Shown here: positions 2,801-45,411 of the stretch, piece after piece
How positions within the stretch are numbered: the first letter of the stretch is position 1
Layout: each line of letters starts with the position of its first letter
Assembly (NCBI GenBank): GCA_029258515.1
Contig: JARHYK010000002.1
Span: 167,216-231,215 of the forward strand
Reading direction: 5' to 3'
Source of the DNA: Clostridia bacterium
GTDB taxonomy: Bacteria > Bacillota > Clostridia > TANB77 > CAG-508
Length of the DNA: 64,000 nt
Made by a program: the position numbers and the translations under genes
The notes under the pieces: model-generated
What the model saw: only the letters and a program-made list of their open reading frames with translations
Told to the model about the DNA's origin: nothing
The model's database searches: none

Positions 2801-4354
2801 ATGGAAAAAATAAAAATAAAGAAAACAAATGGTATTACTTTAATTGCATTAGTAATTACAATAATAGTTTTATTAATCTTAGCAGGTGTAACAATAGCAA
2901 GTTTAAGTGGAGATAATGGAATACTTCAAAGAGCAAGTGAAGCAAAGAAAAAAACTAACAAAGAAGATGCAGAAGAATCAATAAAATTACTATTAACAGA
3001 AGTTCAAATGGAGAAAAATTTAGGAACAAAACCATTAAAAGATTTGTTAGAAGAAAAATTTGGACAAAGTAATGTAAAGCCAAATGGAGATGGATTTAAA
3101 GTAATAAAAGATGGTTATGAAGCAACAATTGATGCTAATGGTAATTTAGTAGGAGAAGTAGTAAAAGTAGGAACAGGGGGAGAAATACCAATACCACCAA
3201 CAACAGGTAAAACAGATGGGAGTTGGGATGCAACAAAAGGTGTAAATTCACCTAAATTAAAAGATAATATGAAATTAGTAACATACAGCAATGGAAATTG
3301 GGTAGAAGATACAACTAATTTAGCTTATAAATATGTTGCAGGAACAGGAAATGAAGACAATATTTCAAGTGAATGGGCAAATGCTGTTTTAGATGGAAAT
3401 TATTATGTATGGATACCGAGGTATGCGTATAAAATAGATAATAGTGTAACATATACAAGTCAAGCAGGTACAAGTCATAAAATAGATGTTAAATTTGTTG
3501 ACAATAGTGTAAAAGGAACAACAAGTGATGGGTATATAGTACATCCCGCATTTACATTTGGAACAGAAGAGCTAAGTGGAATATGGGTAGGAAAATATGA
3601 AACAAGTAGAAGTGATGCAACAGAAACTCAAGAAGGAACAGCTATAACAGTAAAAATACAACCAAATGTTAGAAGTTATAGAAATATAACTGTATCAACA
3701 ATGTTTGAAGCAGCTAAAAGTTTAAGTAAGCCAAATGTAGATGCTCATATGATGAAAAATACAGAATGGGGAGCAGTAGCATATTTGGCACAAAGTCCAT
3801 ATGGAAGAAATGGAACAGAAGTAAGTGTGAATCAATGTAGTGATTATATAACAGGAGCAGGAAAGACTAAAGGAATAAATAAAATTTATGAAAGTACAAC
3901 TTATTCACAAGCAGACATAGAACCAGAACAAAAATATGATGGAGCTATAGGTAAAATGTCAAGTACAACAGGAAATGTATATGGAGTATATGATATGTCG
4001 GGTGGAGCATTGGAGTATGTAATGGGGGTATATGGAACAGGAAATCCATTAAAACCATCAATTGGCAGTTCTTCAGGATTTGATATTAATAAATTCCCAG
4101 AAAGTAAGCATTATGATGTATATGAAAATAAAACAAATGATTATGGAAATTATGAAGGTGGTAAAGATGGTGATGCAACTAAGGAAATTCAAAATTGGAA
4201 TAATGATTTTGCTTACTTTGTGAATTCTGACCATCCGTTTTTCTTACGAGGAGGTAGATATAATAATTCTGGCAATTCAGGTTTGCTTTGCTTTACCTGG
4301 GGTAATGGTAATGCTTACGGTGATCTCGGTTTTCGTCTTTGCCTTGTGGTATAG
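2801..4354 (+). CDS. type IV prepilin-like N-terminus fused to an FGE-sulfatase/C-type-lectin-fold domain protein; candidate DGR target
   Basis: Short basic leader ending in G (MEKIKIKKTNG), then a hydrophobic helix ITLIALVITIIVLLILAGV. FGE-sulfatase domain motifs TEWGAVAY, GVYDMSGGALEYV and RGG...GFRLC are present. The C-terminal 35 codons are A-depleted and Asn/Ser/Gly/Tyr-rich. Confidence 0.75.
   Translation: MEKIKIKKTNGITLIALVITIIVLLILAGVTIASLSGDNGILQRASEAKKKTNKEDAEESIKLLLTEVQMEKNLGTKPLKDLLEEKFGQSNVKPNGDGFKVIKDGYEATIDANGNLVGEVVKVGTGGEIPIPPTTGKTDGSWDATKGVNSPKLKDNMKLVTYSNGNWVEDTTNLAYKYVAGTGNEDNISSEWANAVLDGNYYVWIPRYAYKIDNSVTYTSQAGTSHKIDVKFVDNSVKGTTSDGYIVHPAFTFGTEELSGIWVGKYETSRSDATETQEGTAITVKIQPNVRSYRNITVSTMFEAAKSLSKPNVDAHMMKNTEWGAVAYLAQSPYGRNGTEVSVNQCSDYITGAGKTKGINKIYESTTYSQADIEPEQKYDGAIGKMSSTTGNVYGVYDMSGGALEYVMGVYGTGNPLKPSIGSSSGFDINKFPESKHYDVYENKTNDYGNYEGGKDGDATKEIQNWNNDFAYFVNSDHPFFLRGGRYNNSGNSGLLCFTWGNGNAYGDLGFRLCLVV
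2828..4010 (+). repeat. dispersed repeat copy A (paralogous to 30761..31900; about 95% identical over the first ~780 nt, patchy thereafter)
   Basis: By-eye nucleotide alignment of the two pilin/FGE genes. Identity begins exactly at the codons for NGITLIAL. Confidence 0.8.
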
Positions 4355-4715
4355 AAATGTGAATTTTGTAATTTGTAATGTGCATAATTTAATAAAATGT
4401 TAAATCTCTTATATAGTAGATATTATTGTGATATAAAATTGCAAAGATACTATATAGGAGTTTTTTATGATTGACAAAAGTTGTTAGTAAAGTTGTAAGA
4501 AAATATGTAAGTGAGAGTTTTAAATATTATACGAAAGATAGATATTATCTAAAGATATTAAATGTGATAAGATATAATTAAATAGACAAGCTAAAAAAAG
4601 AAAAGAAGATTACAGAAATTATTAAGTGATAAGAATTTTAAAAAATAATGACAAAAGATTAAAATATACTTGAAAAATAAAAAAAAGTGTGTTAATATAT
4701 AAAAGAATTGTTGAT

Positions 4716-4790
4716 AGGGGTATAGTGTCAATGGTAGCACATCGGTCTCCAAAACCGCCTGTGAGGGTTCGAATCCTTCTACCCCTGCCA
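4716..4790 (+). tRNA. tRNA-Trp (anticodon CCA)
   Basis: A cloverleaf can be folded by hand. Acceptor stem AGGGGTA/TACCCCT, anticodon loop CTCCAAA, T-loop TTCGAAT and a 3' CCA. Confidence 0.85.
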
Positions 4791-11028: not shown

Positions 11029-11820
11029 ATGGAGACATTTGCACAATATATATTAAATGAAAAAGCCTTGGGGTCTAAAATGGAAATAGTATATTATTTA
11101 GCTAAAAAGGAGAAAATATTTTTTGATAAATCTGTTATATTTAAAACAGAACTTTTAAGAATGTTTTTAAATAATTTGGAGTTAGGATTAGATAAAAATA
11201 TATTGTTAACTGCAAATTTATTAGCAAGTTGTAAAAAAATAGAAGTATCTGATGATTTAGAAAAAATTAAAGCTTTTTCAAAAGTAGGAGCAGAATATTT
11301 ATATAGTATAGGATTTGATGAGAAATTTTGTAAAATATGTGAAGGGATAAATAGATATACAAAGCAAGAAAAGAGGGAAAAAGAGAGCGATGTTTTAGAA
11401 TTAATTGATCAATTTGGTGGAATGATATTAGATAGACCAGAAAGAATAGGAATGAAGCCAGATGAAGCTTTAGTTATATTAGAACATAGAAATTTAAAAG
11501 GTCAATTTAATAGATATTTACAATCGTTTATTGATTTTATAAATGAGATAGAACAAATAACTATAAAACAAGATAGGGAAAGAACACCTATTGAATTATT
11601 GTTAAAACTATATAAAGAAACAGCTAATGAGAAAAGATATATTACAGCTGTTATTTACGAATATGAGCAGTTGGTTGATGAAGCTTTTTGTAAGGCAAGA
11701 GAGGGAAAAAATTGTGAAATTAGAAAAAATATGCTAGAATTAGAAAAAGGAAATCCAAATAGGTCATTATTTAGTGAAGAAACAACACAAAAAATAATAG
11801 GAAAATTGATAGAGAAGTAG
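11029..11820 (+). CDS. hypothetical protein
   Basis: 263 aa ORF tightly spaced before the EndoQ-like gene. No family recognised. Confidence 0.4.
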   Translation: METFAQYILNEKALGSKMEIVYYLAKKEKIFFDKSVIFKTELLRMFLNNLELGLDKNILLTANLLASCKKIEVSDDLEKIKAFSKVGAEYLYSIGFDEKFCKICEGINRYTKQEKREKESDVLELIDQFGGMILDRPERIGMKPDEALVILEHRNLKGQFNRYLQSFIDFINEIEQITIKQDRERTPIELLLKLYKETANEKRYITAVIYEYEQLVDEAFCKAREGKNCEIRKNMLELEKGNPNRSLFSEETTQKIIGKLIEK

Positions 11821-11837
11821 AGAAGGAAGGTAGATAA

Positions 11838-13025
11838 ATGTACGAAATATTTGCAGATTTACATGTTCACATTGGGAGGTCAGAAAGTGGTAAACCAATT
11901 AAAATAACTGCCGCTAGATCTTTGAATTTTGCGAATATAGCAAAGGAATGTGAAGCTAGAAAAGGAATACAAGTTGTAGGAGTTATTGATTGTGCGTCAC
12001 CATATGTAATAGAAGATATCGAAAAATTTTTAAGTAATGGCGATGCTTATGAGCTAAAAGATGGTGGAATAATATATAAAGATAAGGTTTGTATATTATT
12101 GGGAAGTGAAGTAGAAACATCAGAAAAAGGAAGAAATGGAAAGAGTGGTAGTGCTCACAATATTTGTTTTTTTCCGTATTTGGAAGATATAAAAGGTTTT
12201 TCAAAAGAGATGAGTACACATATAAAAAACATAACATTAAGTACTCAAAGGTCAAATGTTTCTGGATATGAATTAATAGATATAGTAGAAAAATATAATG
12301 GTATTTTGATTCCAGCACATGTTTTTACACCACATAAGAGTTATTATGGAAATTGTGTAGATAGTTTAAAAGAAATTTTCAGGGAAAAATATGATAAAGT
12401 ATTTGCAATAGAATTAGGATTAAGTTCAGATACTATGTTAGCAGATATGATATCAGAATTGGAAAATAAGACATTTTTGACAAATTCTGATGCTCATTCT
12501 CTTCCTAAAATTGCAAGAGAATATACTAAGATGTTAGTAGAAGATATATCATTTAAAGAAGTTGTAAAAGCTTTAAAAAATGAAGATGGAAGAAGAATTA
12601 TTGCTAATTATGGGTTAGATCCAAAACTTGGAAAATATCATAGGACATATTGTGATAATTGTGAAAAAACTATAGAAACTAAAGAACCAGTTAATAAATG
12701 TCCTTATTGTGGAAGTGAAAAGGTTACTTTTGGTGTTTTTGATAGGATAGAATTAATAAAAGATAAAAAAGAAAGTAAAAGTCCTAAAGATAGACCACAA
12801 TATATTTATCAAGTACCACTTGGATTTATTCCAGGTGTAGGAGGAAAAACTATTGAAAAATTATTAGATACTTTTGAAACCGAAATGAATATTTTACATA
12901 AGCTTTCAAAAGATGATATTGAAGCTGTGGTTGGAGAAAAAATTGCAAATAAGATTGATGAAGCAAGAAGAGGTAAATCAAAAGTTCATTCTGGTGGTGG
13001 AGGAAACTACGGAAAAATAGAATAG
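11838..13025 (+). CDS. PHP-domain protein, endonuclease Q-like (TIGR00375 family)
   Basis: N-terminal ADLHVHIGRS metal-binding motif of PHP domains. C-terminal zinc finger CDNCEK...CPYCG as in EndoQ. Confidence 0.5.
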   Translation: MYEIFADLHVHIGRSESGKPIKITAARSLNFANIAKECEARKGIQVVGVIDCASPYVIEDIEKFLSNGDAYELKDGGIIYKDKVCILLGSEVETSEKGRNGKSGSAHNICFFPYLEDIKGFSKEMSTHIKNITLSTQRSNVSGYELIDIVEKYNGILIPAHVFTPHKSYYGNCVDSLKEIFREKYDKVFAIELGLSSDTMLADMISELENKTFLTNSDAHSLPKIAREYTKMLVEDISFKEVVKALKNEDGRRIIANYGLDPKLGKYHRTYCDNCEKTIETKEPVNKCPYCGSEKVTFGVFDRIELIKDKKESKSPKDRPQYIYQVPLGFIPGVGGKTIEKLLDTFETEMNILHKLSKDDIEAVVGEKIANKIDEARRGKSKVHSGGGGNYGKIE

Positions 13026-13907: not shown

Positions 13908-14789
13908 ATGGAAAGACAAATTAAACTATTTTTAAAATTTATAGAGACAGAAAAGAAGTTATCTAGTAATACTTTACAATCATACCAAAGAGATTTAAAA
14001 CAATTTGAGGATTATATAAATGATAATAAGGTGCTTTATACTCATGTACATGAAAAACATATTAAAAATTACATTGAGGAATTAGAAAAGGAAGGAAAAA
14101 AACCATCTACAATATCAAGAAATATAGCATCAATCCGTTCATTTTATTTATTTTTAGTAAGAAAATCAAAAGTAAAAGAAGATCCAACTGCAAATATTCA
14201 ATCACCTAAGATTGAAAAAAGAGTACCAAGTGTTTTAACTTCAAAAGAAGTAGAATTATTATTAGAACAACCTAAAACAGAAGATTTAAAAGGAATAAGA
14301 GATAAGGCAATGTTAGAATTTGCTTATGCGACAGGAATGAGAGTAACAGAAATTATTTCATTAAATATAGAAGATGCACATATAGATGAAAGTTATGTAG
14401 TTTGTAAAAATGGAAATAAACAAAGAACTATACCTCTAGGAAAATTAGCTCAAAAGGCATTAAAAGAATATATTGAAAAGTCAAGAAATATATTAATTAA
14501 AAATGATAAAGAACAAGCTTTATTTGTTAATATAAATGGAAGAAGATTAACAAGACAAGGTTTCTGGAAGATTATTAAATATTATAAAGAACAAGCTCAT
14601 ATTGAAAAAGATATAACACCACATGTATTAAGACATTCATTTGCAACACATTTATTGAAAAATGGAGCAGATTTAAAATCAATTCAAGTTATGCTTGGAC
14701 ATTCTGATATATCATCAACACAAGTTTATATGCAATTTCAAGATGATGGAATAAAAGATATTTATAAAAAAGCGCATCCACGTGCTTAA
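13908..14789 (+). CDS. xerD: site-specific tyrosine recombinase XerD
   Basis: Phage-integrase-family catalytic region with the conserved R...HxxR...Y pattern (LRHSFATHLL, HSDISSTQVY). The N-terminal SAM-like domain is typical of XerC/D. Confidence 0.8.
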   Translation: MERQIKLFLKFIETEKKLSSNTLQSYQRDLKQFEDYINDNKVLYTHVHEKHIKNYIEELEKEGKKPSTISRNIASIRSFYLFLVRKSKVKEDPTANIQSPKIEKRVPSVLTSKEVELLLEQPKTEDLKGIRDKAMLEFAYATGMRVTEIISLNIEDAHIDESYVVCKNGNKQRTIPLGKLAQKALKEYIEKSRNILIKNDKEQALFVNINGRRLTRQGFWKIIKYYKEQAHIEKDITPHVLRHSFATHLLKNGADLKSIQVMLGHSDISSTQVYMQFQDDGIKDIYKKAHPRA

Positions 14790-30733: not shown

Positions 30734-32233
30734 GTGAAAAAATCTAAAGAAAGAAACACAAATGGTATTACTTTAATTGCATTAGTAATTACAATAATAG
30801 TTTTATTAATCTTAGCAGGTGTAACAATAGCAAGTTTAAGTGGAGAAAATGGGATACTTCAAAAAGCAAGTGAAGCAAAGGAAAAAACTAATAAAGAAGA
30901 TGCAGAAGAATCAATAAAATTACTAGTAACAGAAGTTCAAATGGAGAAAAATCTAGGAACAAAACCATTAAAAGATTTGTTAGAAGAAAAATTTGGACAA
31001 AGTAATGTAAAGCCAAATGGAGATGGATTTAAAGTAATAAAAGATGGTTATGAAGCAACAATTGATGCTAATGGCAATTTAGTAGGAGAAGTGGAAAAAG
31101 TAGGAACAGGGGGAGAAATACCAACAACTGGTAAAACAGATGGAAGTTGGGATGAAACAAAAGGTGTAAATGTACCTAAACTAAAAGATAATATGAAATT
31201 AGTAATATATAGTAATGGAAATTGGGTAGAAGATACAACAAATTCAGCTTATAAATATGTTGCAGGAACAGGGAATGAAGATAATAATTCAAGTGAATGG
31301 GCAAATGCTGTTTTAGATGGAAATTATTATGTATGGATACCAAGGTATGCGTATAAAATAGATAATAGTGTAACATATACAAGTCAGGCAGGTACGAGTC
31401 ATAAAATAGATGTTAAATTTGTTGACACTAGTGTAAAAGGAACAACAAGTGATGGGTATATAGTACATCCCGCATTTACATTTGGAACAGAAGAGCTAAG
31501 TGGAATATGGGTAGGAAAATACGAAACGTCAGGTGATATTGCAAAACCAACAATAAAACCTGATCAAGTAGCATTAACAGATATTAATGTTGCAACGATG
31601 TTTGGAACAGCTAAAAAATTAAGTAAAATAAATATAGATGCTCATATGATGAAAAATACAGAATGGGGAGCAGTAGCATATTTGACACAAAGTTCATATG
31701 GGAGAAATGGAACAGAAGTAAGTGTGAATCAGTGTAGTAATTATATAACAGGTGCAGGGAGAGGAATTGGTAATCCAATAGATAATCCAATTTATAATGG
31801 AATATATTCAAATCCAGAACTTAATCAAAAATATAATGGAGCAATAGGACGATTATCAAGTACAACAGGAAATGTATATGGGGTATATGATATGTCTGGA
31901 GGAACAGTTGAATATGTGATGGGAGTATATGGGACAGATAAAAATAATATAAGTTTTAGGTATTCTGGTTTTGATATCAATTCTTTTCCAAAAGAAGAAA
32001 AATATTATGATTTGTATACTAAAACAAGTACAGATATAACTAATATTGGTGATAGTTTGTTTGAAACATCTGGTTGGAATAATGATAATAAATCTTTTTT
32101 TAATCTCGACTTTCCTTTTTCTAGACGTGGTGGTCGTTATAATTCTTCTAGTGATGCCGGTATTTTTTATCATAATCCTTACAATGGTGCCAATGATAGT
32201 TCGTACGGTTTTCGAGTGTGTCTTTCAGTATGA
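30734..32233 (+). CDS. type IV prepilin-like N-terminus fused to an FGE-sulfatase/C-type-lectin-fold domain protein (paralog of 2801..4354); candidate DGR target
   Basis: GTG start with an AAGGAGG RBS. Leader MKKSKERNTNG followed by ITLIALVITIIVLLILAGV. The FGE motifs are conserved. The divergent C-terminal 36 codons are A-depleted and Asn/Ser/Tyr/Asp/Gly-rich. Confidence 0.75.
   Translation: MKKSKERNTNGITLIALVITIIVLLILAGVTIASLSGENGILQKASEAKEKTNKEDAEESIKLLVTEVQMEKNLGTKPLKDLLEEKFGQSNVKPNGDGFKVIKDGYEATIDANGNLVGEVEKVGTGGEIPTTGKTDGSWDETKGVNVPKLKDNMKLVIYSNGNWVEDTTNSAYKYVAGTGNEDNNSSEWANAVLDGNYYVWIPRYAYKIDNSVTYTSQAGTSHKIDVKFVDTSVKGTTSDGYIVHPAFTFGTEELSGIWVGKYETSGDIAKPTIKPDQVALTDINVATMFGTAKKLSKINIDAHMMKNTEWGAVAYLTQSSYGRNGTEVSVNQCSNYITGAGRGIGNPIDNPIYNGIYSNPELNQKYNGAIGRLSSTTGNVYGVYDMSGGTVEYVMGVYGTDKNNISFRYSGFDINSFPKEEKYYDLYTKTSTDITNIGDSLFETSGWNNDNKSFFNLDFPFSRRGGRYNSSSDAGIFYHNPYNGANDSSYGFRVCLSV
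30761..31900 (+). repeat. dispersed repeat copy B (paralogous to 2828..4010)
   Basis: By-eye alignment with copy A. Contains a 6-codon indel (PIPPTT vs PTT) and scattered substitutions. Confidence 0.8.
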
Positions 32234-39160: not shown

Positions 39161-39249
39161 TGGTGCAGATGGCCGGAATCGAACCGGCACGAGGTTTAAC
39201 CCTCGCAGGATTTTAAGTCCTGTGCGTCTACCTGTTCCGCCACATCTGC
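39161..39249 (-). tRNA. tRNA-Leu (anticodon TAA), long variable arm
   Basis: The reverse complement folds as a class II tRNA. Acceptor stem GCAGATG/CATCTGC, anticodon loop CTTAAAA, T-loop TTCGATT and CCA end. Confidence 0.85.
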
Positions 39250-41183: not shown

Positions 41184-42110
41184 ATGGGTAAGTATCAAAA
41201 TTTTTATGCCATAGAAACTTTGAATGATGTTGAAAAAAGAAATAAAAAAAATAAAATATTAATAATATTTTTGTTGCTTGTTATTTTTAGTATTTTGTTA
41301 TTTTTAATAGTAAATGTAAATAGCAATATTAAAAAGTTAAAGCAAGCTAAGGAATATGAAAAACAAGTATTAGAGTTTAAGGAAAAATATGAAAAAGAAG
41401 AATTAAGAAAAAAACAAGAAGAAGAACAAAAAAAACAAGCTAGATTACCTAGAATAACAGAACAGGGAAAAGAAAATTTCAGAACGATTTTTCATTCTGA
41501 TAAAAAACGAGCATTTTTAACATTTGATGATGGACCATCTACTGTAACACATAAAATATTAGATACATTGGATGAAAAAGGAGTAAAAGCAACATTTTTC
41601 ATATTGGGAGTAAATGCTGAGAAAAACAAAGAATTAGTAAATCAAATGTATGAAAAAGGGCACTATATTGCAAATCATGGTTATTCACATGTGTATTCAT
41701 CAATATATTCAAGCCCACAAGCAGTTTTAGATGAGTATAATAAAACAAATGATATAATAAAAGAAGCTATTAAACAACCAGAATTTAATTCATATTTATT
41801 TAGATTTCCAGGTGGATTTTATGGTGGAAAATATGCAAATATTAAAAAAGAAGCAAATGAAATGTTAAAGCAAAATGATATTTCTAATATTGATTGGAAT
41901 TGTTTAACTGGTGATTCTGAAACAAGTAGTCCTACGCCAGAATATGTTATAAAAAGATTAAAAGAAACGTCTAAAGGAAAAAATAGTTTAGTAGTATTGA
42001 TGCATGATGCACAAGCTAAAAAAGTTACAGCAGAGATGCTACCACAAATTATAGATTATCTAAGTAGTGAAGGATATGAATTTAAGACATTTTATGATAT
42101 ATTTATATGA
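41184..42110 (+). CDS. polysaccharide deacetylase (NodB-homology) with an N-terminal TM anchor and coiled coil
   Basis: NodB motifs FLTFDDGP and ANHGYSH. Confidence 0.75.
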   Translation: MGKYQNFYAIETLNDVEKRNKKNKILIIFLLLVIFSILLFLIVNVNSNIKKLKQAKEYEKQVLEFKEKYEKEELRKKQEEEQKKQARLPRITEQGKENFRTIFHSDKKRAFLTFDDGPSTVTHKILDTLDEKGVKATFFILGVNAEKNKELVNQMYEKGHYIANHGYSHVYSSIYSSPQAVLDEYNKTNDIIKEAIKQPEFNSYLFRFPGGFYGGKYANIKKEANEMLKQNDISNIDWNCLTGDSETSSPTPEYVIKRLKETSKGKNSLVVLMHDAQAKKVTAEMLPQIIDYLSSEGYEFKTFYDIFI

Positions 42111-44467
42111 GTTATAAAATAAAATGTTTTGATTTTTGTAATTTATTTTCAATAAAGAAAGGAGCAATAAAATTGCCTAGAAAGAAGAAGACAAATTTTG
42201 AACCAGAGATAGAAGAAAACTTAAAATACATAGGATTAGATTTAGAAAAGTTACCTCAAAATATTATTGATTTTGAACCATTAAAATTTAGGCCTACAAA
42301 AACATATGACGAGAAAAAATATATACAATATAGATTTGTATCTATTCAGGATATTCAAATATTAATTTCACCAACAAATAGGTTAGAAGAATTAGAAGAA
42401 AAATATAAAAAAGCAAGACCGTTAGTAGATTATATGGATAACAAAAAAGAAGATAATTTGTTGAGATTTACAGTGTTTTTGAATATGATCAAACAAATGG
42501 ATATTGCTGAAATAGAAAAAGTAGAAGAAGAACAAAAAAAACTTGCTCAAAAACTTCCTTTTAATGTTAAATATGAAGGTAATTATTTATGGCAAATTTA
42601 TTATTCAGAGATAAGTGATAAATATTTTATGCTTGTTCCTATGGAAGAAACAAATTATTCAGCGTTTTTCTATTTATTAAAGAAGAAAATTGAAAATAAT
42701 AAAAATGATAAGATATTTGTACCTGTTTGTAATATTGGATATTCAAGAGAATTTTTTACAAAGACAGAATATAAAGATATAGAAGATTATTTATGGTTAT
42801 TTACTAAAAATTGGACATCTATTTATGAGGTGTATGATGAAAATAATAAACTTTCAGTTAATATAGTTGGAGAAACTGCAATTTATAATAATATAAAAAG
42901 TAAATATAAAATAAATATAAATAATCAAAAAGAAGCAAATCATTTTTATAAACTTTTAAAGGCATTATTTATTTTGCAAACAGAATTACCAAATTATTAT
43001 AAGTTTGATACAAATGTAGATGAGAAGGGTAATTTGCAATTTTATTTTAGAGATACACAAATTGAATATTCTAAAATGGCATCATTTATTAAAGAAGAAT
43101 TTTCTCAAGGAGAGATTTTAGAAATAGACATCTTAAAGAAAATAGAAAATGCTGATAAGAGATTAGAAGAATTAAAGCAAATAGCCTCTATGCAAGAAAT
43201 TGAATATAGAGATAAAGAAAAGCAAATATCAACTTTTTTAGAGTGTAAGAAAACATTTTTTGGGAAAGTTAAGTATTATTTTAAAATTAGTAAAAAAAAT
43301 AAAAAGAAGAAAAATCAAGAAGAGTTTGAAGAAAAAACAGTACAAGAGGATAGTTGTGAATTTTATAATGAAGAGAATGTACCTAAAGCTTTGAATTCAA
43401 AAAATCACACAATAGAAGAGCTAATAGAAAAATATAAAAATATTGATAATCAAGAGAATTTGTTAAAAAACATGGTTATGGATATAAATGCAATTAAATT
43501 AAAAAATAAAAATATGGCTAAAAAGATTGAAAATGCAACACTTTTTATAGAAGAAATTGATAATCATAAAAGAAGTATTTTTGAATTTTGGAAATATAGT
43601 AATAAAGATGCTATTAGTGTATTACCAGAAGGAGAAGAAGAAGAAATAGGAGTTGTTAAGAAAAAAATCGAAAAAGCTTTTGATTTTGAAGAAGATTTTG
43701 AAAAGTTTGGAATAAAATTAGATAATTTGCAAAGAGAAAAATTATCAATAGATGAAACAGATAGTATATATATTGCAACAACTAATATGTTAGATCTTTT
43801 GAATAAAATTCTTCTAAATGAAGTTGGACCTAAAGATGTTGAAAATGAATTAAAAAATTTAAAAAAAGAGTTGAAAGAAAAACAAGTGATTGAAACAGAT
43901 GAAGAATTTGATATCTTTGGAAGTTTAATTGAAGATAGTAGGAAGATAAAGAAAATAGGAAATAAGATACATAGAGAAATATCAAAAGACAAGTTTGATA
44001 TTCTTGAAATTACAAAAATGACTAGACAAATAGGGTTTAAGCTATCTTTGGAACAAGTTATTAAAAATATTAAAAATTCATTGGATAAGGTAAAATCTCC
44101 AGATGATTTAACTATCTATAAAGCAATTGTAGATGATAAGTTAGATGAAAATAAGATTAATGTTTTTGATATTAATTCTGAAAATGAAATGAAAAAAGCG
44201 TGCAAAAAAGAAGGAAATATGATTAATTTATATAAGATTAATTTAAAACGAGGTGAAAATATTTTAGGTTTTACAAATATAATTTATTATGATAATCAAA
44301 ATGATACTTTGCCTGCTGGAATGGATTTATCTACAAATGTTATAGTAGATATTTCAAAAATTGATTTGAATATTAAAAAGAAGAAAACTTTCCAAATTGC
44401 ATGTTTAGAAGATGAAAAAGATGAATTTTCTGATGTGATAGTTAAAAAAGTAACTGTTTATGAATAA
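42107..44467 (+). CDS. large hypothetical protein (786 aa, Lys/Glu-rich, coiled-coil-like), translationally coupled to the deacetylase
   Basis: ATGA start/stop overlap with the upstream gene. No signal peptide. No recognisable domain. Confidence 0.5.
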   Translation: MSYKIKCFDFCNLFSIKKGAIKLPRKKKTNFEPEIEENLKYIGLDLEKLPQNIIDFEPLKFRPTKTYDEKKYIQYRFVSIQDIQILISPTNRLEELEEKYKKARPLVDYMDNKKEDNLLRFTVFLNMIKQMDIAEIEKVEEEQKKLAQKLPFNVKYEGNYLWQIYYSEISDKYFMLVPMEETNYSAFFYLLKKKIENNKNDKIFVPVCNIGYSREFFTKTEYKDIEDYLWLFTKNWTSIYEVYDENNKLSVNIVGETAIYNNIKSKYKININNQKEANHFYKLLKALFILQTELPNYYKFDTNVDEKGNLQFYFRDTQIEYSKMASFIKEEFSQGEILEIDILKKIENADKRLEELKQIASMQEIEYRDKEKQISTFLECKKTFFGKVKYYFKISKKNKKKKNQEEFEEKTVQEDSCEFYNEENVPKALNSKNHTIEELIEKYKNIDNQENLLKNMVMDINAIKLKNKNMAKKIENATLFIEEIDNHKRSIFEFWKYSNKDAISVLPEGEEEEIGVVKKKIEKAFDFEEDFEKFGIKLDNLQREKLSIDETDSIYIATTNMLDLLNKILLNEVGPKDVENELKNLKKELKEKQVIETDEEFDIFGSLIEDSRKIKKIGNKIHREISKDKFDILEITKMTRQIGFKLSLEQVIKNIKNSLDKVKSPDDLTIYKAIVDDKLDENKINVFDINSENEMKKACKKEGNMINLYKINLKRGENILGFTNIIYYDNQNDTLPAGMDLSTNVIVDISKIDLNIKKKKTFQIACLEDEKDEFSDVIVKKVTVYE

Positions 44468-45051: not shown

Positions 45052-45411
45052 TGGTGGAGATGAGGAGAGTCGAACTCCTGTCCATAACACATTCCATATA
45101 AATTTCTACAAGTTTAGTTTATTATTTATCCTTTTTTTTATATCTTCAACAAACAGAATATATAAAACGAAAGCTCTTTTAAATACCTACTATATTAAGA
45201 GCAAATATAGTTTTGTTTCCTACATAAATGACACTTTAGCCTAAAGCGTAGGGACTTATAGGTAAAGCGTAGCTACAACTTAGGCAGCTAGTGCAAATTC
45301 TCTATTATTATCTGCATTTATATTTAAATTTCCCGTTTTTTAAAGTGGCCAACGAGAATCCACTACTTGCTATTTATACTTCTTGTGTAATGTCGAAACC
45401 ATTACATCCCC
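45052..45411 (-). ncRNA. ssrA: tmRNA (SsrA)
   Basis: 5' GGGGATGTAATGGTTTCGAC pairs with the 3' tRNA-like end GGACAGGAGTTCGACTCTCCTCATCTCCACCA. An internal tag reading frame GCA GAT AAT AAT AGA GAA TTT GCA CTA GCT GCC TAA (ADNNREFALAA) lies at 45315..45280. Confidence 0.8.

Follow-up and report, generated by a model that had tools for sequence, protein, structure and literature searches.

A probable variable region of diversity-generating retroelement descent in a pilin-like lectin gene of a Clostridia bacterium

Introduction

This study concerns the 3' end of one gene, here called gene 2, in a 64,000-nucleotide stretch of the genome of a Clostridia bacterium (contig JARHYK010000002.1 of assembly GCA_029258515.1; the whole stretch is referred to as the window), which is probably a variable region (VR) written by a diversity-generating retroelement (DGR). 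The closest comparable system is the L001 cassette of an uncultured gut Clostridia metagenome-assembled genome (MAG; ENA BRZ_GB NODE_491), in which the target gene P0012 is followed, in this order, by a template repeat (TR), bAvd and a reverse transcriptase (RT). Gene 2 shares with the L001 target a pilin-like N-terminus, a tail of the form WNND...RGG...GFRVCL, the scaffold codons CGT GGT GGT and a low content of third-position A (A3) in the tail. In contrast to the window genes, L001 carries TR, Avd and RT downstream of the target, and its VR varies between near-identical strains.

Structurally, the nearest described protein is TaqVP (5VF4), the DGR variable protein of Thermus aquaticus, which is prophage-encoded in published descriptions. 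Like TaqVP, the gene 2 product is predicted to have a C-type-lectin fold with a C-terminal VR. However, the two proteins share only 15–16% identity at a TM-score of 0.36–0.47, and the alignment of TaqVP, whose solved chains have 380–385 residues, is confined to the C-terminal domain of the gene 2 protein.

DGR targets may also lie far from their RT. In the Treponema denticola DGR (TvpA) and others, one RT/TR serves several scattered paralogs of the C-type-lectin or FGE type, and up to 7 non-adjacent targets, some more than 100 kb away, have been reported (PMC5758913); surveys based on contigs are by design blind to such remote targets (PMC8144416). An arrangement of this kind is what a live VR in gene 2 (VR2) would need. 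Remote VRs of the Treponema type differ from their TR by A-to-N changes only, whereas VR2 and the corresponding region of the paralogous gene 1 (VR1) are mutually incompatible, and no TR was found in the DNA and collections described below.

For the N-terminal part of the protein, Streptococcus sanguinis PilB, a pilin module with a grafted adhesion module (PMC8179133), offers an architectural analogy only, in that a hydrophobic helix of the pilin type precedes a large globular module for binding. Unlike PilB-type pilins, the window proteins fall short of N_methyl and of the NCBIfam pilin models, lack Glu5 and have no pilus genes nearby. A 'G-type pilin' domain is among the rare VR-bearing domains in one survey (PMC11661182), and we found no characterised pilin-like DGR target in the literature.

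Results

Codon and base signature at the 3' end of gene 2

Gene 2 starts with GTG, eight bases past a GGAGGA ribosome-binding site. Its product begins with a basic stretch followed by a long hydrophobic helix (NG-ITLIALVITIIVLLILAG) and ends in ...WNNDNKSFFNLDFPFSRRGGRYNSSSDAGIFYHNPYNGANDSSYGFRVCLSV. The parts of the gene referred to below are as follows.

30734–32233, + strand: gene 2, a 499-residue open reading frame (ORF) whose product has a hydrophobic, pilin-like helix at the N-terminus and a predicted C-type-lectin (TaqVP-like) domain at the C-terminus
30761–30841, + strand: N-terminal hydrophobic helix of gene 2 (residues about 10–36, GITLIALVITIIVLLILAG...), type IV pilin-like or class III signal-like
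32081–32227, + strand: VR2, probable full extent, with boundaries carried over from the verified L001 VR/TR pair
31931–32080, + strand: pre-VR segment with partial A3 depletion (14/50 versus 216/399, p = 5e-4)

VR2 occupies the last ~50 codons of gene 2, and its bounds follow from homology to the L001 VR, which extends from the second N of WNND to C-L-A. A sequence-only reading of the same DNA had placed the start at position 32123. The region it described, 32123–32233, is real and comprises the final 36 codons plus the stop codon of the ORF, but it represents only the 3' three-quarters of VR2, since the tract poor in A, like the homologous VR of relatives, extends about 42 nt further upstream, to ~32081.

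The A content of 32123–32233 is 21.6%, compared with 42.3% for the window, which places it at percentile 0.7 among all windows of 111 nt. The description of this region as almost A-free is accurate for the ten scaffold codons quoted in support of it, which contain a single A; the region as a whole is A-depleted rather than A-free. The only comparably A-poor gene region on the + strand is the tail of gene 1 (4238–4348, 18%). At 32050–32200 the AT skew reverses from about +0.25 to −0.31, while the GC content remains low throughout (0.30–0.36), the third positions having shifted from A to T or C.

Codon usage changes accordingly. In 32081–32230, A occupies 5/50 third positions versus 224/429 in the body of the gene (Fisher p = 2.7e-9), or versus 216/399 with the body as counted for the pre-VR segment. 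All Gly codons of the tail are GGT, as the sequence-only reading had stated; five of the six that it counted lie within 32123–32233 (5/5, versus 10/46 in the body; p = 0.0013), and the sixth lies upstream at 32072–32074. Arg is encoded by CGT or CGA in VR2, compared with AGA or AGG in 5/6 cases in the body, and the RGG codons CGT GGT GGT are the same choice as in the L001 VR and TR. Between RGG and GFR, 23 of the 24 codons are NNY, versus 39% in the body (binomial p = 5.9e-9). VR2, with an A3 fraction of 0.10, is as sharply depleted as the verified VRs of L001 (0.14), L029 (0.08) and L062 (0.06).

The A3 depletion is synonymous, so amino-acid composition does not explain it. Among the 86 family genes surveyed in relatives, 54 have A3-depleted tails, and the remaining 32 lack significant depletion (p < 0.001), some of them clearly so (e.g. 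L036, L051 and L068); the signature is therefore not imposed by the protein sequence.

DGR targets among related genes

P0012, the L001 target, is 54% identical to the gene 2 protein over its full length and is followed by the TR, bAvd and an RVT_1 protein. The L001 VR (11399–11548) and TR (11697–11846; 150 nt, 298 nt downstream) share 84% identity, and TR adenines account for 24 of the 26 mismatches within the VR. L001 is a textbook DGR with its VR at the position homologous to VR2. Two further TR/VR pairs of the family, L029 and L062, show 0 and 4 mismatches at other bases and 12 and 20 at adenines, respectively, and L083 and L084 each contain a family VR with a TR-like repeat, as read by eye and BLAST. 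A local TR, within 10 kb, accompanies 3 of the 86 family genes.

A small ORF with a MutS_I domain (125–147 residues) lies directly upstream of bAvd-RT in three loci (L083:5127–5570, L084:2699–3076 and L085:5206–5628). L001 lacks this ORF, which may be an accessory gene particular to the lineage.

In the clade nearest to gene 2 (P0003–P0012 and P0121), protein bodies are 93–99.6% identical, compared with 56–90% over the last 50 residues, and the variable positions align with the N, S, D, Y and H codons of gene 2. This clade is diversifying exactly in its last 50 residues.

Some family members probably acquire their variation at a distance. L022 and L028 come from separate contigs of the same MAG, neither has an RT within 10 kb, and the differences between their VRs number 19, 15 and 5 at codon positions 1, 2 and 3. 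This pattern is as expected for one AAY template, so action in trans is plausible within the family; L022, L028 and L041 are probably trans targets of one TR.

The DNA behind some of these genes has a common feature. In L022, L028 and L041 the stop codon is directly followed (+1 to +30) by a perfect hairpin of 12 bp with a GAGA or GAAA loop, and L084 carries one of 6 bp with a GAAA loop. In the VRs of L022, L028 and L041, differences fall nearly all at codon positions 1 and 2, and no RT was seen within 10 kb.

Fold and domain assignment

The AlphaFold2 model of the gene 2 protein has a mean predicted local distance difference test score (pLDDT) of 89.9 (83-sequence alignment), with helices predicted at residues 10–36 and 41–73. 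In a Foldseek search of the PDB, the chains of 5VF4 were the only significant match (E = 1.7e-9, probability 1.0), and 5VF4 was also the only significant match when the family profile was compared with PDB sequences (E = 3.4e-5). The model establishes a predicted C-type-lectin, TaqVP-like fold, and gene 2 thus combines a VR at the 3' end of its ORF with this modelled fold.

The names pilin and FGE, which the sequence-only reading had applied to the gene, stay below the Pfam and NCBIfam thresholds. No significant Pfam or NCBIfam match was obtained for either window protein. For the FGE-sulfatase family PF03781 there was no match even at E ≤ 10, FGE-like proteins in the PDB profile search reached only E = 0.4–0.9, and Foldseek aligned the model to the FGE-like domains of OvsA and EgtB at only E = 0.02–0.05. 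The likeness to FGE is at fold level only. In the family, which comprises at least 7994 homologs, mainly from gut metagenomes, a precomputed PF03781 match was present in 3 of the 120 best homologs.

Similarly, the Pfam model N_methyl (PF07963) remained below threshold (E = 0.16–0.25 and 11–12 bits against a cut-off of 21.2 bits; E = 0.16 and 12.1 bits for gene 2), and the NCBIfam pilin models, including TIGR02532, gave no match to the window proteins. The N-terminal motif of gene 2 is NG|ITLIALV, with Ala rather than Glu at position +5. Pfam scans of the window ORFs revealed no pilus assembly genes, and the N-terminus showed weak sequence matches in the PDB to an archaeal flagellin and to geopilin. 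A phage origin of the family was considered and rejected, as IMG/VR contained only 5 distant loci.

Comparison of gene 2 with its paralog gene 1

The second copy of the gene in the window and the regions used in the comparison are listed here.

2801–4354, + strand: gene 1, a 517-residue paralog (P0002) with 74% protein identity to gene 2
4202–4348, + strand: VR1, the counterpart of VR2 in gene 1 (A3 6/50 versus 249/447 in the body)
30775–31545, + strand: shared block, ~94–100% identical to 2842–3560 of gene 1 in the identity profile

The gene 1 protein ends in ...WNNDFAYFVNSDHPFFLRGGRYNNSGNSGLLCFTWGNGNAYGDLGFRLCLVV, and its tail carries the same footprint as gene 2 (p = 1.2e-9), as had been reported from the sequence. 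The near 95% identity claimed for the 5' ends also holds, in the form of the shared block. Its start lies ~20 nt ahead of the start codons; upstream of it the DNA of the two paralogs is unrelated. The identity profile is a mosaic, with 94–100% identity over ~700 nt followed by an abrupt fall. From 4042/31939 on, identity is ~50–60% over the entire last 300 nt, and two internal patches (3622–3680 and 3862–3920) are at least as divergent as the VR; the VR is thus not uniquely the site of maximal divergence that the sequence-only reading had taken it to be. A Logan assembly of SRR14857245, from the same strain, breaks at the shared block in both copies (contigs L087, L088 and L089). The pattern suggests that the 5' coding half alone was recently duplicated or subject to gene conversion.

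Of the 150 positions compared, VR1 and VR2 differ at 65 (24, 18 and 23 by codon position), and an A is involved in only 7 of the third-position cases. A single template for both would require 81 adenines in 150 nt. The two VRs cannot share one template, which bears out the earlier statement that both could not stem from one AAY template, and the same differences, many of them without A, rule out that VR1 served as the template of VR2 or the reverse. With 23 of 50 third positions differing while both A3 fractions stay near 0.1, the divergence is not what neutral drift in this A3-rich genome would produce. Rather, the pattern points to a separate template for each VR, both poor in A, and to little decay after the VRs were written.

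The segment immediately before the VR is partially A3-depleted over ~50 codons in both genes. In gene 1 (4052–4201) the count is 18/50 versus 237/417 (p = 0.0065), and the fractions amount to 0.28 in gene 2 and 0.36 in gene 1, compared with 0.54 and 0.57 in the respective bodies. Such a segment is absent from the verified homolog L001. In position, the pre-VR tract coincides with the end of the ~95% paralog identity.

Search for a template, RT and Avd

The search for a TR and an RT for which the sequence-only reading had called was run over the window, the 9 kb to its left (L089) and collections of genome, viral and metagenome contigs. Its outcome, together with several further observations gathered here, weighs against the DGR reading of VR2. 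Within the window there is no ORF of more than 150 residues with a YxDD motif, tblastn with the RT and Avd of L001 gave no match, and Pfam scans of 40 window ORFs detected neither RVT_1 nor bAvd, only housekeeping genes. An ungapped, adenine-tolerant scan of both strands of the window for a TR yielded at best A-rich tracts with at least 15 non-A mismatches per 93 nt. The 9 kb left of the window contain no RT and no Avd, and no TR was detected there or in any fetched locus. A degenerate TR pattern derived from VR2 was likewise found in none of the collections; VR2 itself was absent from them as well, so the source genome is not among them. When homologs of the L001 RT were collected, none of the top 120 turned out to be encoded on the source contig of 246,528 bp.

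Three observations on VR2 and its paralog point in the same direction. The Logan assembly is unbroken through VR2 and 100% identical to the source assembly, with which it probably shares its data, and there is no sign of strong within-sample heterogeneity. The two mutually incompatible VRs would require two templates. Furthermore, as regards the target-recognition element looked for downstream of a DGR target (IMH plus hairpin), the strong GAAA/GAGA-loop hairpins seen after the stop codon in L022, L028, L041 and L084 have no counterpart in gene 2, which has only a weak AACTT-GTC-AAGTT 24 nt after its stop codon; such a hairpin was found neither in gene 1 nor in the verified L001.

A fourth observation comes from L002, the locus of P0003, which is among the closest homologs. 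It contains a truncated, indel-ridden 5' half of a TR (11551–11930) and neither Avd nor RT, with DnaJ at the place that Avd and RT occupy in L001, and has the appearance of a decaying DGR cassette. Its VR keeps an A3 fraction of 0.14 despite the decayed TR. As the signature persists here without an RT, it cannot tell a live VR from an orphaned one; the A3/NNY signature marks DGR origin, not current activity.

Several candidates and smaller searches complete the picture. Blastn with a word size of 7 and an IUPAC pattern allowing up to 3 mismatches returned only A-rich tracts as TR candidates inside the window. A gapped, adenine-tolerant alignment of VR2 to 4572–4699, considered as a TR remnant, is not significant and was put down to chance; the spacer in question, which separates gene 1 from tRNA-Trp and is 58% A, scored 57.5 versus 42.9 ± 5.9 for shuffles, a score that 7 of 500 local shuffles reached in a set of 12 comparisons. 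An exact 29-mer of the conserved block had no match in metagenomes, the 90% clusters of the window proteins P0001 and P0002 have one member each, and the three NCBI-only matches among the L001 RT homologs are rabbit-gut MAGs.

As neither TR nor RT was found in the ~73 kb examined, VR2 counts as a DGR target of the TaqVP/TvpA kind by homology, fold and codon signature, and as an active target at most putatively. For the same reason, independent diversification of the two VRs, in the sense of a process ongoing in this genome, is a possibility that the search did not support.

Neighbouring genes

A 3-hydroxyacyl-CoA dehydrogenase gene lies downstream of gene 2, and a prolyl-tRNA-synthetase-like gene and a tRNA-Trp gene (4716–4790, + strand, directly 3' of gene 1) lie downstream of gene 1, with no DGR cassette at either place. 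Elsewhere, the window contains a tRNA-Leu(taa) gene at 39161–39249 (− strand) and a tmRNA gene with the tag ADNNREFALAA at 45052–45411 (− strand). A 786-residue ORF at 42107–44467 (+ strand) and two adjoining ORFs of 263 and 395 residues at 11029–13025 (+ strand) have no Pfam match at E ≤ 1e-5.

Discussion

Because the codon signature, the homology to verified targets and the TaqVP-like fold agree, VR2 (about 32081–32227) is probably DGR-written by descent. The proposal of a DGR-type variable region in the sequence-only reading is supported by these three lines and by the VR-confined variation of the nearest clade. We propose the following hypothetical sequence of events, in which (i) a TR rich in AAY codons would be transcribed; (ii) the DGR reverse transcriptase and Avd would copy the template, misreading adenines; and (iii) the resulting cDNA would replace the VR by mutagenic retrohoming. 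Under this scheme any A in the template would be mutable, hence scaffold codons would avoid A and variable codons would come from AAY. Mutability of template adenines would account for CGT, GGT, TTT, TGT and CTT at the conserved R-G-G...G-F-R-V-C-L and for NNY at the variable codons. The gene 2 product would be a membrane-anchored or pilin-like surface protein whose lectin tip bears the VR as a ligand-binding surface, and the VR of gene 1 would be written from a different template.

Given a DGR origin, the question arises whether VR2 is still being rewritten. A DGR elsewhere in the genome may still act on it in trans, a proposition that we regard as close to evenly balanced, on the doubtful side. 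In that case the cognate TR and RT would lie more than 30 kb away, as for a remote target; otherwise they would have been lost.

Their loss would make VR2 an orphaned VR, a possible reading that we hold tentatively and that is itself nested in a DGR origin. Here, an ancestral DGR, or a 3' cassette recombined from a DGR-bearing paralog, would have supplied the tip, which would now evolve by ordinary mutation and recombination, with no TR or RT remaining. This agrees with the lack of TR, RT and Avd in the 64 kb of the window and the 9 kb beside it, with the unbroken contig that is identical in a second assembly, and with the incompatibility of VR1 and VR2, which one TR cannot serve. L002 exemplifies the orphaned state in a close relative, and in the family A3-depleted tails are far more frequent than TRs within 10 kb. 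However, the signature of VR2 is as sharp as that of verified VRs, with no relaxation of A3 toward the 0.5 of the genome. L022 and L028 indicate that copies distant from an RT can share a template, remote targets are well documented (PMC5758913), and most of the genome lies outside the ~73 kb that were searched.

Exchange of DGR-derived 3' tips between the two paralogs, and possibly others, by recombination or gene conversion at the near-identical 5' block, as the source of variation in place of retrohoming, appears improbable to us. It would fit the mosaic profile with its abrupt drop, the unrelated upstream regions of the paralogs and the breakage of assemblies at the shared block. In contrast, the window holds no silent partial 3' copies, and neither gene is flanked by a recombinase or inverted repeats, the sole integrase being Xer-like (13908–14789). 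Moreover, exchange accounts for the mosaic structure but not for the codon signature.

An origin unrelated to DGRs is similarly hard to credit. Under this explanation, VR2 would be a fast-evolving lectin loop, and its unusual codons would reflect either amino-acid composition or a 3' segment of foreign or recombinant origin. Consistent with it, paralog divergence covers the last ~300 nt and two internal patches rather than the VR alone, partial A3 depletion reaches ~50 codons upstream of the VR, the proteins have no Pfam match, and neither TR nor RT was found in the DNA searched. Yet the depletion is synonymous, falls where verified homologs have their VR and is not significant (p < 0.001) in 32 of the 86 family members; the GC content stays low and third positions go from A to T or C; and RGG is encoded exactly as in the L001 VR and TR. 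We know of no ordinary donor whose codon usage would give a low-GC, A-to-T/C third-position shift. A phase-variation inverton was rejected, only AT-rich imperfect inverted repeats being present upstream and downstream.

Beyond a DGR origin, the mosaic of the two genes allows a broader model with two layers of variation, which we consider unlikely as it stands. In this model, a DGR, perhaps with more than one TR or on a mobile element, would write the tips, the 5' blocks would permit exchange or fixation of tips among paralogs, and orphan VRs would form a standing library instead of being relics. Reduced-genome gut Firmicutes would, on the same model, hold large families of pilin-like lectin paralogs with DGR-written tips mostly far from an RT.

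In summary, if VR2 is live, at least one of the organism's pilin-like surface lectins is being diversified by a template located over 30 kb from it, and contig-based surveys would undercount the DGR targets of gut Firmicutes; if it is an orphan, it would be an ordinary relic. In either case, the A3/NNY signature flagged a VR without a TR, which suggests a route to candidate VRs where the TR is missing; in the small set at hand, the signature is present in all three TR-verified VRs and missing in about a third of family members. The main value of the finding is what it shows across the family, where many paralogs bear the signature at a distance from any RT.

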